In this document: positions 323-21,770 of the stretch, one piece after another
How the letters are laid out: each line of letters starts with the position of its first letter
How positions within the stretch are numbered: position 1 is the first letter of the stretch
Origin: Escherichia coli
GTDB taxonomy: Bacteria > Pseudomonadota > Gammaproteobacteria > Enterobacterales > Enterobacteriaceae
Length of the DNA stretch: 64,000 nt
Strand: one strand, 5' to 3'
Assembly: GCF_017348835.2 (NCBI RefSeq)
Contig: NZ_CP071375.1
The notes under the pieces: generated by a model
What the model was told of the DNA's origin: nothing
Database searches by the model: none
Seen by the model: the letters and a program-made list of their open reading frames with translations, nothing else
Made by a program: the position numbers and the translations under genes

Positions 323-1297
323 TTAACGCAGAATCTTCTTCTCAGCCAGATCCAGCGCAAAGTAGCTGAAAATCAGATCCGCACCTGCACGCTTAATCGA
401 ACCTAAGCTTTCGAGCACCACTTTCTCTTCATCTATAGCACCCGCCAGCGCGGCGAACTTAATCATCGCGTACTCACCGCTCACCTGATACGCGCCAATC
501 GGCAATTCAGTACGTTCACGCAGCTCACGCACGATGTCGAGGTACGCTCCAGCAGGTTTAACCATCAGGCAGTCTGCGCCCTGGGCTTCATCCAGCAGTG
601 ACTCACGAATCGCCTCACGACGGTTCATTGGGTTCATCTGATAGCTTTTGCGGTCGCCTTTTAATGCGCTTCCGGCAGCTTCACGGAACGGACCATAAAA
701 GGAGGAGGCGAACTTGGTCGAATACGACATAATCGCCGTATCTTTAAAGCCAGCAGCGTCCAGCGCCTGGCGAATCGCCTGTACCTGGCCATCCATCGCG
801 GCGGAAGGGGCGATGAAGTCTGCACCTGCAGCAGCTGCAACCACGGCTTGCTTGCCTAAATTTTCCAGAGTCGCGTCGTTGTCGACGCCATGCTCGCACA
901 GCACACCGCAGTGACCGTGAGAAGTGTATTCACAGAAGCAGGTGTCTGACATGACAATCATTTCTGGCACTGTCTGCTTGCAGATGCGCGACATACGCGC
1001 CACCAGTCCATCTTCCCGCCAGGCATCGCTGCCGGTTTCATCGGTATGGTGAGAGATGCCAAAAGTCATCACGGAACGAATACCGGCGTTGGCGATGCGT
1101 TCAATTTCGCGTGCCAGATGTTTCTCTGGAATGCGCATCACGCCTGGCATGGCTTCAACGGCTTTGTAGTCGTCAATTTCTTCTTCAACAAAGATCGGCA
1201 ACACCAGGTCGTTAAGGCTAAGTGTTGTCTCTTCAAACATAGCGCGCAGCGCAGGAGATTTGCGCAGGCGACGAGGGCGTTGGATTAAGTCTGTCAT
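323..1297 (-). CDS. hemB: Porphobilinogen synthase (delta-aminolevulinate dehydratase)
   Basis: 335-aa ORF recognised as HemB; start placed at the internal Met ([13 protein letters not shown]...) giving 324 aa. Confidence 0.93.
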
Positions 1298-1820
1298 GGT
1301 CTGCCTGATGTTTGTGGAATCGAGGGGCATAGTATACCTGAAGCAGGGTAGGGATGTTTTACGAAAGTTGTCGCGATGTTGACAAGAAGAGAATGGAAGA
1401 GAGGCCAGGACATCTTTTTAATAGAAACAGCAATAATTTTATATTCACTGAAAATATTTTTAATCTTTATTTATAGCTATTGGTTATTATTCTTTGGAGT
1501 TTGGTTGCGCTGCTATAAATTGAATAATTAAAACTTTGTTGCATATTCATAGGATATTTATCTGGTTTGTGTTTGTGATATTTATTATGCGAATGTTTCA
1601 AAAATAAAATTATCTGCAACATGTTGAAATACTATGCTTTTATGAATTTGATGCGTGTTTTTCTCCATAAATTATATATGTCCACATTCGGACTTAGGGG
1701 AAAGAATAATTGAACCATTCGTCTGTAACGCAGCATAATCGTTAGCGCGAAACATAAGATGTTTTCTATGCATTGATAATTGATGGATCAACTTATTACG
1801 TCCCTGAGGAGGGATGACAA

Positions 1821-4796
<2,976 letters not shown>

Positions 4797-17527: not shown

Positions 17528-17784
17528 CCGCATCAGACTGCTCGGAAGGGATTCTGAGTGCCACTACAAGGGATCTGCGTCACATTTTTCATAATTCATG
17601 TTTTTCAAATAATTAGAATATTAAACAATAACAATCCATTACTGGAATCATTTGGAATCTTTACATTATGCCGTGCACGTCTGCTGCTACGCTTTTTGTC
17701 ATTTGTAGCACAAGTAAGTGTCAGCAGTGGTGCTTAACACTTGCCCGGTAATTAACGACGAAATAAAAGTAAGGTGGAAGAACA

Positions 17785-18462
17785 ATGAGTGCGTCGTTGG
17801 CGATCCTGACCATCGGCATTGTACCTATGCAGGAAGTTTTGCCGCTCCTGACAGAATACATTGACGAAGATAATATTTCCCATCATAGCCTGCTGGGGAA
17901 GTTAAGCCGCGAAGAAGTGATGGCGGAGTACGCGCCAGAAGCAGGCGAAGACACCATTCTCACATTATTAAATGACAACCAGCTGGCCCATGTTTCGCGT
18001 CGCAAAGTAGAGCGTGACCTGCAAGGTGTGGTTGAAGTGCTCGATAATCAGGGCTACGACGTCATTATATTAATGAGTACGGCAAACATTAGTAGTATGA
18101 CTGCGCGTAATACGATCTTTCTTGAGCCGTCGCGGATATTGCCACCGCTGGTTTCCTCTATTGTTGAAGATCATCAGGTGGGGGTTATCGTACCGGTTGA
18201 GGAGTTGCTGACCGTTCAGGCGCAAAAATGGCAAATTTTGCAGAAACCGCCGGTATTTTCATTGGGTAACCCCATTCATGATTCAGAACAAAAAATCATT
18301 GATGCCGGGAAAGAATTACTGGCGAAAGGCGCAGATGTCATCATGCTGGATTGTTTGGGATTTAACCAGCGTCATCGCGATTTACTGCAAAAACAGCTCG
18401 ATGTTCCTGTCTTGCTCTCTAACGTATTGATTGCACGGCTGGCTGCGGAATTACTGGTGTAA
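17785..18462 (+). CDS. aroM: Protein AroM
   Basis: 225-aa ORF in the conserved aroL-yaiA-aroM arrangement. Confidence 0.88.
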
Positions 18463-18533
18463 TTTTGCGTGACAGCCAGCGCCTCTGGCCCCTATAGTGA
18501 AGTAGATGTTCAACTACCAGACAGGGCCAGTTT

Positions 18534-18818
18534 ATGCTTCAAAGTAATGAGTACTTTTCCGGCAAAGTGAAATCGATCGGCTTTTCCAGCAGCAGCACTG
18601 GTCGCGCCAGCGTGGGTGTTATGGTTGAAGGCGAATACACCTTCAGCACCGCTGAGCCGGAAGAGATGACGGTAATCAGTGGCGCGCTGAATGTGTTACT
18701 GCCTGACGCGACCGACTGGCAAGTGTATGAAGCCGGTTCGGTGTTTAATGTTCCCGGTCACAGTGAGTTTCATCTGCAAGTTGCCGAACCCACCTCTTAT
18801 CTGTGCCGCTATCTGTAA
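18534..18818 (+). CDS. ppnP: Pyrimidine/purine nucleoside phosphorylase PpnP (YaiE)
   Basis: 94-aa ORF beginning [17 protein letters not shown]. Confidence 0.88.
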
Positions 18819-18961
18819 TTCCTCGCCTTCCCCTTGAACGGGAGGGCATTTTTCTGAAATATCCTCTCTTTAACCCATAATAATATTTCCTTTGCTGCGA
18901 TTTTTTCAATTTCCGATATATTCATAATTCATCAAGGTTGATATAAATATCATTGAAGATT

Positions 18962-21241
18962 ATGAATAGAATTAATATATTGGTCATCTGTATGGACGTA
19001 TTTTTTATGACTGGCAATGCATGTGCCACAGAGTGGATCAGTAGCGAGGACCTTATCACCTCTGACTTTCATCTTATGACGGCAGATGAGCGCAACGTGG
19101 TTAAAGCGGCAACCGACGATAGTATGGAAGCTGCTTATATGCTAAAAGATAATATCCGCTGGTATTATCATAATGGTGACCTATCATTACCCGCTAACTT
19201 CAGCAATCAAAATAAACTGGTGGTGAACGGTAATTTAACGATTTCCGGCGATTATGATGATTATCTGTCAGGTAATGGTCATCTGATTGTATTAGGTAAT
19301 GTTATTGTCGATAACTTTATTAATCATGATTTCGCGTATGTCAAAGGACAGATGACAGCGAAAGGTTTAGTTTATGCTGATTACAATGATCATAACTTTG
19401 AAGTGATGAAGGGAATTAGTGCGCGAGGCATTATTGTTTCCGATAAAGCAACGCAATTTGAAGTCATTAAAGCTGAATTTTATATCAATGAAGATGGAAG
19501 TGGTGAAGGATATAACTGGGATGAGAATATTCAAAAAGCCTATTCACTGGTGACTGCCGATCTTTATGATCACACTGAAATCGAAACCGATAACATTTCC
19601 AATGCGTATCCTGACTATGATAGCGTCGCAGACAACATCGTTCAGGGTTTACCGCTTTTTCGAGATAAAGCCGCTCCTGAAATTAATGAGAAATTAAAAT
19701 GGATTGAAACGGGGAAACTCGATAATTTCCCAGCGAATAAAATAAAGCATCAAGATCCACTGGTGGCACGTTTTCTGACTCATACAGAGAGTTTATCACC
19801 CGCCGTTATGCTGCAACTGTTACAGCACCCCGATGACCAGACGCGTGAATCGATGGCGCAGTCCTGGCCCGCTCAACAGATGCATTTGCTTACCGATGAA
19901 TTAATTAAAGATGAGGCTGTTGCCAGAGGGCTGGTTAAAAACAGTAATATTTCCGCCGATGTGAATAAAAAATTAATGTCTGTACCCGTCGAGAGCGTAC
20001 AGCTGGAGCAGGCCAGACAGGATAATCTTTCTCCAGATATTGTTGCGTCGTTAAGTCATAGCCCCTTTCTCAGTGTACGCAAGACATTACTCAGCCATTA
20101 CGATTACGCCTGGCTGGTTCCGACTGCAGTGGCCGATGAGTTGATAAATAACGAAGACCCGGAGTTACGTGAAAGAATTACCGGAGCAGATTTAACCGCA
20201 CAACAAGCAGTGATGTTGAGTAAAGATAAATCACTGAAAGTTCGTGAAGCATTAGCCCGGACGCTTACTGAATTAAAAATTACCAAACTGTCAGCAACCC
20301 TGCGTACAGAGGATATTGAACGTATCGCAGAACAAATGTATCTGGATAATAAAGAAAATAAAAATATCGTAAAGGCGTTATTGATAGCGTTGCCGGAGAT
20401 GCGTCAACTGTCTCTGGCAAAAGAAGATGTGCACAATTTGCGCGAAGGTGCGCGTTATCTGACATCGAGGGAAGTGATTAGTTATCTACTGACTCAGCAT
20501 GATATTCCCACCGTCTGGGGTGAGCTGGCACGCGATAAATTATTGCCGCTGGAATATAAGAAACAATTATGGCAACGCACATTAAATTTAATGATGAGCA
20601 AACGGCAAGAAGATCAAGAGCAAGCCTACGAAGTACAGCTGGCGCTGATTGATAATGGTGTTGTTGACGAAGAGATGTTAAATAATGCCATTGATTTACT
20701 GGTTGATTTACCCGCTGAATACCGCTATCGAATGCGTAACCAATTATTTGATAATAAAGATTTATCTTCCGGAATTATCAACAAACTCGATCAACAGTAT
20801 CGCTTCAACTCTGACTGGGCGCTGGCTGTTGTCAGTCTGAAAAATAGCACCCGTAGGCAAAGTGAAAGAGGATTACACCGCTGGAACAGTGAGGATAGCG
20901 ATATTTTTGCGGAACTGGCGACGATAAAAGATAAATCAGATGATGAATGGTGGCGTGCATTGCTGCAAAGTCGCAATGATCATTTGCGCCAAACGGCATT
21001 ACGCAACGCACATACCCCGGCGTCGTTGTTAATGACATTGACTGAGCCTCAGGATCGGTCGCTGGCTATTAATAATCCACAGCTGGCTGCCGATGTGAAA
21101 ACGGCGTGGTTAAAAGAGGATCCATCATTACTCTTATTTGTCGATCAACCCGATCTTTCGCAGTTACGTGATTTAGTGAAAACCGGGGCAACGCGGAAAA
21201 TTCGCAGTGAAGCGCGTCACCGGCTTGAGGAAAAACAATGA
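18962..21241 (+). CDS. Hypothetical large repeat protein (about 759 aa): hydrophobic N-terminus, beta-rich Asn/Gly/Asp region, C-terminal HEAT/LRV-like alpha-helical repeats
   Basis: Long ORF in an AT-rich stretch; ATG at 18962 (ORF track gives TTG at 18953); N-terminus [22 protein letters not shown]; repeated L..L..HPD/SP/DP...R/V...L blocks in the C-terminal two thirds; 4-bp overlap with the next ORF. Confidence 0.8.
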
Positions 21242-21693
21242 CACAACGTCCATGGAGCAAGTTACAGCGGGAGATCTATGACTTACTGACGCCAACGATC
21301 AACCTGCAAATTCACTGTACCCGTTATCCCATGCGCAGCCAAAATGGTGGAAGCACCGATTTACCGCGTTATTGGATCACGTTGGATAAAAACGTGATCT
21401 GGGATTACCCGAAAGACTTTATTGCAGGTAACGGTGGAGTGCGTAATTTTCACGGTGAAACTTGCTGGTATCCTTACCTGACGGATATTTGTTCAATTTC
21501 TGATTTATTGCGTGAATATATTGATACCCCAAAAGCGGAGCTGTTAACAAAACAATTTACCAGCGATAAATGGGGGTTAGTGAATATTCTGCGTGCTGCT
21601 GACAGGCGAATAGGGATGAGGCGATTAGATCAGTTACGGCGTAAAACGCATAATATTGCTGCGCTAAAAATTATTGCCCGCCGTAGCGAATAA
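21238..21693 (+). CDS. Hypothetical 151-aa protein, translationally coupled to the upstream repeat protein
   Basis: ATGA start/stop overlap with the preceding ORF; no signal peptide; followed by a REP element. Confidence 0.7.
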
Positions 21694-21710
21694 TTATATC
21701 CCTGGTGTGG

Positions 21711-21752
21711 CTTCGTACGCCGGATAAGACGCGGCAGGCGTCGCATCCGGCA
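21711..21752. repeat. REP (repetitive extragenic palindrome)-like element
   Basis: GCCGGATAAGACGCGGCAGGCGTCGCATCCGGC-type palindromic unit between convergent genes. Confidence 0.7.
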
Positions 21753-21770
21753 TTAAAGGAAAATCAGCAA

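Follow-up and report, generated by a model that had tools for sequence, protein, structure and literature searches.

The intact ykiA locus of Escherichia coli: a two-gene unit of which K-12 ykiA and ykiD are deletion relics

An intact ancestral locus

The DNA analysed here is a 64,000-nucleotide stretch of Escherichia coli (contig NZ_CP071375.1, assembly GCF_017348835.2), called the window throughout, and the subject is a cassette of two overlapping genes between ppnP and rdgC, which encode a large protein of 759 amino acids (aa) and a small protein of 151 aa. Comparison of genomes indicates that the cassette is ancestral in Escherichia, that its variability comes from repeated loss and not from insertion, and that the K-12 genes ykiA and ykiD are in-frame deletion relics of the two intact genes. 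The reading that we favour, and to which we give roughly an even chance, is that this intact ancestral ykiA locus is a two-gene transcription unit with functionally unrelated products, an exported scaffold and a cytoplasmic immunity-type protein. The locus is laid out as follows (window positions).

18534-18818: ppnP, upstream flank
18825-18847, plus strand: terminator-like hairpin 3' of ppnP, an 8-pair stem with 6 G-C pairs followed by a T-run
18848-18961, plus strand: AT-rich promoter and 5' region of the large gene, counterpart of the K-12 yaiE(ppnP)-ykiA intergenic region
18962-21241, plus strand: large open reading frame (ORF) from the RefSeq ATG start, 759-aa protein, full-length form of ykiA
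21227-21231, plus strand: GAGGA Shine-Dalgarno sequence of the small gene, 6 nt upstream of the second start
21238-21241, plus strand: ATGA stop/start overlap of 4 bp (ATG 21238-21240, TGA 21239-21241)
21238-21693, plus strand: small ORF, 151-aa SF0329-family protein
21719-21751, no strand assigned: imperfect palindrome (GCCGGATAAGACGCGGCAGGCGTCGCATCCGGC), presumably of the repetitive extragenic palindromic (REP) type, between the convergent SF0329 gene and rdgC
From 21771, minus strand: rdgC, convergent downstream flank

A preliminary description of this stretch had placed two ORFs overlapping as ATGA in an AT-rich block between ppnP and rdgC, and its coordinates, the overlap and the composition all hold. 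The G+C content of 18840-21770 is 42.5%, compared with 50.0% for the window and 50-52% for the flanks, and only 3.9% of equal-sized windows are equally low. RefSeq names the products 'DUF2773 domain-containing protein' and 'SF0329 family protein'. The genes carry the locus tags ECs0442 (large) and ECs0443 (small) in O157:H7 Sakai, and the locus is matched at 100% identity throughout in one RefSeq genome (strain PE164, pig). If the large ORF began at the TTG further upstream, at 18953, its protein would have 762 aa.

Loss of the two genes in Escherichia

A K-12-type genome aligns to window positions 18401-18960 at 98.6% identity, the match ending just before the ATG of the large gene. Two deletions, both bounded by about 10 bp of microhomology, account for the K-12 state:

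18961-20886, missing in K-12-type genomes (deletion 1): junction microhomology tgaagat/tgaggat; leaves ykiA, the last 113 codons of the large gene
21270-21631, missing in K-12-type genomes (deletion 2): microhomology GTTACAGCG/GTTACGGCG; leaves the in-frame 27-codon ykiD

K-12 ykiA (b0392) and ykiD share the site, the promoter region and the reading frames of the cassette, and differ in being deletion relics where the window holds the intact ancestral genes. YkiD (27 aa) consists of SF0329 residues 1-10, one junction arginine that can belong to either side, and residues 136-151, all in frame, and RefSeq flags K-12 ykiA as 'missing N-terminus'. The preliminary description was right that K-12 has a short ykiA here, but had not recognised this gene as a 3' remnant of the same large gene. 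No paper found in a literature search treats ykiA or ykiD as what is left of larger genes.

Among 5,426 complete E. coli genomes, the whole 3.5-kb stretch is intact in 443, mostly O157:H7, the interior of the large gene is present in 446, and the SF0329 gene is covered over at least 80% of its length in 920. The large gene is deleted in about 92% of the genomes, SF0329 is kept without it in about 477, and both genes are lost in about 83%. The cassette is a lineage-variable unit of uncharacterised function, as had been proposed, and its variation arises by loss. In the 'SF0329-only' state the K-12 deletion 1 junction is re-used, and a second deletion, reaching to the SF0329 ATG, has then taken away the ykiA remnant; Escherichia sp. 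MOD1-EC7003 represents an intermediate, with a 93-aa remnant of the large gene and an intact SF0329 gene. In E. albertii the large gene carries a different deletion, also internal, from which 'MNR' and roughly the final 30 codons remain, and the SF0329 gene is intact. Escherichia sp. E4930 carries an intact large gene (74% identical) at the same ppnP-rdgC site, together with its own, differently placed, YkiD-like relic of SF0329. The ATGA overlap and the Shine-Dalgarno sequence are kept in three Escherichia lineages (the window, E. albertii and E4930), and since the overlapping pair occurs in several lineages it predates their divergence, each gene having been lost later and independently.

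Expression of the locus

The K-12 ykiA promoter is activated by BglJ-RcsB, and both the promoter and the BglJ-RcsB site have been mapped in a K-12 fragment (PMC3950696); ykiA lay outside the loci tested for H-NS control in that study. The hairpin at 18825-18847 marks where the cassette's own regulatory region begins, and the sequence that follows suggests that the cassette is probably driven by the counterpart of K-12 PykiA. A consensus promoter scan of 18848-18961 gave nothing better than shuffled sequence. Downstream of the SF0329 gene, a simple terminator scan found no canonical plus-strand terminator; the palindrome at 21719-21751, which is conserved in E4930, is the likely 3' end of the transcript.

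The arrangement of the two genes suggests that they are co-transcribed, and coupled expression is plausible. The co-translation put forward as probable in the preliminary description is likewise plausible from the conserved ATGA and Shine-Dalgarno sequence. The overlap is most readily understood as a coupling of translation within one operon, not as the sign of a complex. YkiD is listed, with its sequence, among small proteins detected in K-12 (PMC6001520, Table 1), so that even in the relic translation begins at the SF0329 start site.

The large protein

Three parts are distinguished in the large protein:

18962-19027, plus strand: Sec-type signal-peptide-like N-terminus, codons 1-22, with an A-x-A site before the conserved (T/A)EW
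19163-19489, plus strand: bactofilin-like beta-helix, residues 68-176 (AlphaFold2 model)
19517-21235, plus strand: alpha-solenoid, residues 186-758, about 45 helices, HEAT/LRV/alphaRep-like (AlphaFold2 model)

A possible export signal had been noted in spite of an aspartate in its hydrophobic stretch. The layout is signal-like, in that a basic start and a hydrophobic core precede an A-x-A site (ACA/TEW, read by eye), and the protein is positive in a crude, home-made heuristic based on hydropathy and charge, which stood in for a dedicated predictor. The heuristic is passed by 27 of the 42 full-length relatives, most of which then show the conserved EW; several of those that fail have evidently mis-called starts, and an upstream ATG restores the signal in P0005. 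The aspartate is a V12D change of the window allele (18995-18997), the position being occupied by Val or Leu in Sakai, MA11 and clusters P0001, P0002 and P0003, and its place in the hydrophobic core of the signal-like N-terminus may impair export. Judged from this N-terminus, the large protein would be exported through Sec.

An AlphaFold2 model built on 42 relatives (pLDDT 91, pTM 0.79) bears out the earlier fold calls of a hydrophobic N-terminus, a beta-rich segment forming a beta-helix and HEAT/LRV-like helices, although the helical repeats span about 570 aa where about 450 aa had been given. The N-terminus of the model is a detached helix of low confidence. Its structure matches are bactofilin-like and alphaRep/HEAT only, with no enzyme-specific match, and the model points to a non-catalytic binding or scaffold protein of the envelope. 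Searched by sequence, neither the large nor the small protein matched a solved structure. The large protein had no match to the Pfam bactofilin family (PF04519) at E up to 10 and nothing significant among the Pfam repeat families (HEAT, E 8.5), and its likeness to HEAT, LRV and alphaRep solenoids is one of model and not of sequence. Bactofilins are small cytoplasmic polymer formers. The likeness to them (BacA, PDB 2n3d; Thermus, 6ria) is at the level of the beta-helix fold only, and in the large protein this helix is one domain of a 759-aa protein with predicted export and is fused to a solenoid. Pfam DUF2773 (PF10971) matches residues 679-759 only (E 8.4e-42, full model 1-81), and covers just the C-terminal tenth of the protein, evidently because it was built around the K-12 remnant.

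A word-indexed homologue search returned just Escherichia and two others, and the family is visible only by exhaustive profile search, which gave 283 matches, about 50 of them full length. Named relatives are found in Tahibacter ('polymer-forming cytoskeletal protein') and Pseudomonas, and full-length relatives persist in both and in many metagenomes; no more annotated relatives came from a profile search restricted to the beta-helix domain. More distant relatives share only the beta-helix, without the signal, and have LRV, TPR or PARCEL repeats instead. The neighbourhoods of eight relatives outside Escherichia (five full-length, three distant) are inconsistent. On one metagenome contig (L094, 1136-7174), a signal-less distant relative (1,012 aa, beta-helix plus LRV) lies directly upstream of the gene for an 889-aa protein with a T6SS (type VI secretion system) Tle1-like lipase domain. 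This neighbour is absent at the two other distant relatives checked.

The ratio of non-synonymous to synonymous substitution rates (dN/dS) of the large gene is 0.13 between the window and E4930. Between the window and the O157-type MA11 allele it is about 0.9, a within-species value resting on about 25 substitutions (about 19 non-synonymous and about 6 synonymous), which is consistent with constraint having relaxed in a lineage where the gene is mostly deleted. It is conceivable, if somewhat unlikely, that the large gene is by now a functionless relic nearing pseudogenisation in E. coli and already crippled in this strain. Such a state would agree with the ratio of about 0.9, with the charge that V12D, seen only in the window allele among those inspected, puts into the core of the signal, and with deletion of the gene from most E. 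coli and, as a separate event, from E. albertii. Even so, 443 genomes have the 2,280-bp reading frame intact, its long-term dN/dS is low, full-length relatives persist in other bacteria, and the within-species ratio comes from very few substitutions.

The SF0329 protein and its gene neighbourhoods

The small protein, first described as having no recognisable motif, proved to be a full member of the SF0329 family, from which it does not differ (Pfam PF25753, E 3.8e-22; NCBIfam NF049912, full length, 94.6 bits against a cut-off of 60). No signal peptide is present. The family comprises 542 relatives of the same length and motifs, at roughly 55-70% identity, in many phyla. When 57 relatives are aligned, 17 positions are invariant, among them S7, K8, Q24, R44, D56, D110, D122 and R124, and 36 are near-invariant, among them H26 and C27; NDxWGL and AADRRIG are among the conserved motifs. 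The dN/dS against E. albertii is 0.066, a sign of strong purifying selection. SF0329 is absent from 50,697 phage records, and plasmids yielded one genuine match.

The predicted structure (pLDDT 86.5) is a three-stranded sheet packed on helices, a fold without a match among solved structures. Foldseek against the AlphaFold database (AFDB) returned only the family itself and DUF4304-annotated proteins (32-34% identity, probability 1.0, TM about 0.78). SF0329 is linked in this way to DUF4304 (PF14137), a gene for which also occurs in the same Bacteroides array as SF0329, but SF0329 has no Pfam DUF4304 match, and hhalign of the SF0329 alignment against one Bacteroides DUF4304 protein gave nothing. 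A literature search found no paper on DUF4304, itself uncharacterised, and no mention of DUF2773, the SF0329 protein family or the O157 locus tags. The preliminary description had allowed that homology searches might return a well-characterised family with known function; they went half that way, to DUF2773 and SF0329, families that are named already and not characterised.

A genome scan for SF0329 gave 80 loci, at which neighbouring genes were called by a simple longest-ORF rule and Pfam scans were run on the concatenated neighbour proteins. Clustering over these loci found no neighbour conserved across phyla, and one apparent neighbour cluster was a single-linkage artefact of proteins with unrelated lengths and positions. 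At 16 of the 34 informative loci, at least four of the six nearest genes are small and co-directional. Recognised families lie near SF0329 in the following:

Two gut metagenome contigs (L007 1726-12483 and L008 635-8756): tyrosine recombinase, then an array with Imm10, Macro, DUF7716 and SF0329
Bacteroides and Parabacteroides arrays: Imm43 (E 7.7e-71), DUF4240, DUF4304, SMI1/KNR4, DUF1963 and pentapeptide proteins
Deferribacteraceae loci: GAD-like plus T6SS_Tdi1_C, DUF3916 and endonuclease V
Paenibacillus locus: SUKH-3, DUF2314 and Macro
Leminorella locus: WGR-DUF4240

The arrays of L007 and L008 hold 13 to 19 or more co-directional small genes, most without a Pfam family, at 34% G+C behind a recombinase of 40% G+C, a layout that matches rAID-1. 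Because neighbourhoods of these kinds fit features of polyimmunity loci (PMC3482391) and rAID-1 arrays (bioRxiv 10.1101/471110), SF0329 is best read, from gene neighbourhood only, as an orphan immunity-type protein acting in the cytoplasm.

The Leminorella locus (Leminorella grimontii, L005, 3238-8470) is an island of small genes of about 5 kb between tol-pal cpoB and an aroG-like gene for 3-deoxy-D-arabino-heptulosonate-7-phosphate (DAHP) synthase, and contains HTH_35, two unannotated genes, WGR-DUF4240, a 109-aa gene, SF0329 and, on the opposite strand, a 285-aa lipoprotein-like gene; it looks like a small enterobacterial polyimmunity-type island. A candidate toxin following SF0329 in Mediterranea, a 1,731-aa gene, turned out to encode a TPR protein.

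Proposed roles of the two products

On the reading that we favour, the first gene would yield a product of roughly 85 kDa, exported through Sec, which after signal cleavage would consist of a bactofilin-like beta-helix capping a long HEAT/LRV-like alpha-solenoid, and which may serve in the periplasm or envelope as a non-catalytic binding or scaffold protein. The ATGA overlap would couple translation of the second gene to that of the first, giving a cytoplasmic SF0329 protein of roughly 17 kDa. Because its family recurs as polyimmunity-array cargo in other phyla, this protein would most likely be an orphan immunity protein, one that binds to, and so neutralises, a toxin that other bacteria deliver and that acts in the cytoplasm. 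Both products would now be dispensable in most E. coli.

A number of observations weigh against parts of this proposal. The evidence on PykiA and its BglJ-RcsB site comes from K-12, and for the intact cassette the promoter and co-transcription are predicted. The export of the large protein is predicted by the heuristic, the signal is absent in a few relatives, and bactofilins are cytoplasmic. No cognate toxin lies beside any SF0329 gene examined, about half of the SF0329 loci are solitary and among core genes, and the genes tightly linked upstream are unrelated housekeeping genes (histidine kinase, aminotransferase and glutamyl-tRNA synthetase, identified by reading the sequences). SF0329 stands outside every curated Imm family; its conservation, at 50-68% identity across phyla, is unusual for an immunity protein, and its 17 invariant positions are mostly polar or aromatic, which an enzyme or nucleic-acid binder would fit equally. 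One metagenome-assembled genome (MAG) of an uncultured Bacilli member fuses SF0329 to an RNA 2'-phosphotransferase in a 345-aa ORF (L085 2162-3199, plus strand, CAKPLX010000079.1), in which the SF0329 domain scores 86.8 bits and KptA/Tpt1 NF002014 scores 241.7 bits (cut-off 239). This fusion is the sole one seen and might be an assembly artefact.

Taken together, the unusual conservation, the solitary loci, the fusion and the lack of a toxin make an enzymatic or 'repair-type' role a serious rival to immunity, one that we nevertheless judge rather unlikely. SF0329 would then be a small enzyme or nucleic-acid-binding protein, perhaps of RNA repair or ADP-ribose metabolism, that rides in variable arrays and has no part in immunity. 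The near-invariant H26 and C27 and the dN/dS of 0.066 would suit such a role, as would Macro-domain genes at four SF0329 loci and endonuclease V adjoining SF0329 at two, though the Macro association is rare and that with KptA, at one locus, rarer. The recurrence of SF0329 as array cargo argues for the orphan immunity protein.

A bolder version of the proposal, which we consider improbable, would make SF0329 a new-fold family directed against a widespread cytoplasm-acting interbacterial toxin, through binding or damage reversal, with YkiD as its fossil, and the 759-aa protein the first exported bactofilin-like beta-helix/solenoid, a periplasmic scaffold inducible by BglJ-RcsB. Damage reversal enters through hints from the fusion to RNA 2'-phosphotransferase and from the neighbouring Macro and endonuclease V genes.

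Comparison with polyimmunity loci

Like polyimmunity loci and rAID-1 arrays, the E. coli unit has co-directional, tightly spaced genes of low G+C, varies between strains and lacks a toxin gene, and SF0329 relatives lie inside such arrays in Bacteroidales, Deferribacteraceae, Paenibacillus and Leminorella. It differs from them in having two genes only, no recombinase, no member of a curated Imm family and one product with predicted export. The tandem, co-directional and closely spaced genes without an adjacent toxin that characterise polyimmunity loci are present here at the minimum size (two genes, a 4-bp overlap, neighbours ppnP and rdgC), and the content varies within the species (three states among the 5,426 E. 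coli genomes), but by deletion. Of recognised immunity families there is none, Pfam and NCBIfam giving DUF2773 and SF0329 only. The XerD-like tyrosine recombinase found at the 5' end of rAID-1 arrays is lacking at the window locus; L007 and L008 have the recombinase, and their arrays, at 34% G+C, fall below the 41% criterion. In its layout, composition and variability the cassette is like a minimal polyimmunity locus, but it is without the immunity families that define one.

This resemblance could be carried further if the large protein itself served in the periplasm as an immunity or decoy protein, directed against toxins that act on the envelope, and the cassette were a polyimmunity locus in miniature, of two genes. 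HEAT-repeat proteins figure among the immunity classes listed in PMC3482391, the large gene is co-directional with a candidate immunity gene and overlaps it in an AT-rich, strain-variable region, and one distant, cytoplasmic relative adjoins the Tle1-like lipase gene. That lipase neighbour is a single case, however, beside a relative without a signal peptide; the other seven contexts outside Escherichia have no toxin or immunity genes, and no relative of the large protein occurs in any array examined. We regard this extension as quite improbable.

Obligate pair or independent genes

The preliminary description had likened the cassette to a defence or effector-immunity pair, with the small protein as an obligate partner, and this comparison is not supported. 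In a toxin-antitoxin or effector-immunity pair the toxic partner is never kept alone and inheritance is joint, but each of the two genes persists intact alone in natural lineages: E4930 has only the large gene, E. albertii and about 477 E. coli have only SF0329, and K-12 has neither intact. Outside Escherichia, a SF0329 gene was called in none of the eight 5-6 kb flanks of large-protein relatives, and the 80-locus scan found no large-protein relative at SF0329 loci (within Escherichia, only a remnant). The families differ greatly in size (283 matches for the large protein against 542 for SF0329), and their compartments differ, with an export signal on the large protein and none on SF0329. PADLOC (PADLOC-DB 2.0) gave no defence family for either protein at E up to 1, and PHROGs gave nothing significant for either.

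The separate losses, the lack of co-occurrence and the different compartments therefore argue against a toxin-antitoxin, effector-immunity or two-component defence system, and an obligate pair is not supported. A single functional system of effector-immunity, toxin-antitoxin or anti-phage defence type, composed of the large repeat protein and SF0329 as its obligate partner, could appeal to an overlap and Shine-Dalgarno sequence conserved since the Escherichia ancestor, to the AT-rich and strain-variable region, and to the fact that every copy of the large gene among the E. coli genomes is accompanied by SF0329, but against the evidence above, including the absence of SF0329 from phage records, we find it very improbable.

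Other features of the window

Three further features were noted away from the cassette. A 59-aa ORF lies between yaiA and aroM (17558-17737, plus strand), and is also called as a gene in the Escherichia sp. E4930 assembly (L093 1600-1779). A second AT-rich accessory gene (54808-56379, minus strand), flanked by pgpA and a yajO-like aldo-keto reductase gene, falls where the G+C content of the window is lowest (about 40%); its 523-aa ORF has pentapeptide repeats and weak NCBIfam matches (E 1e-6, far under the cut-offs) to PipB2 and PipB, which are effectors of type III secretion. A third low-G+C stretch, at 700-4300 (about 42.4%), is as low as the cassette region.

Significance

The contribution of this analysis is interpretive: the relic status of ykiA and ykiD, the series of independent losses, the predicted exported bactofilin-like/solenoid architecture, and the association of SF0329 with immunity arrays. 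The current understanding of defence and immunity systems is unchanged by these results. SF0329, whose predicted fold is absent among solved structures, is proposed as a further candidate family for polyimmunity and rAID arrays. The independent deletions amount to a natural experiment, in which a stop/start overlap alone is no sign of a functional pair. Two 'orphan' genes of K-12 are explained as relics, ykiA, a BglJ-RcsB target, and ykiD, which encodes a detected 27-aa protein. Work on ykiA and ykiD in K-12 deals with fragments, and it is O157:H7 (ECs0442 and ECs0443) that offers the real genes for study.

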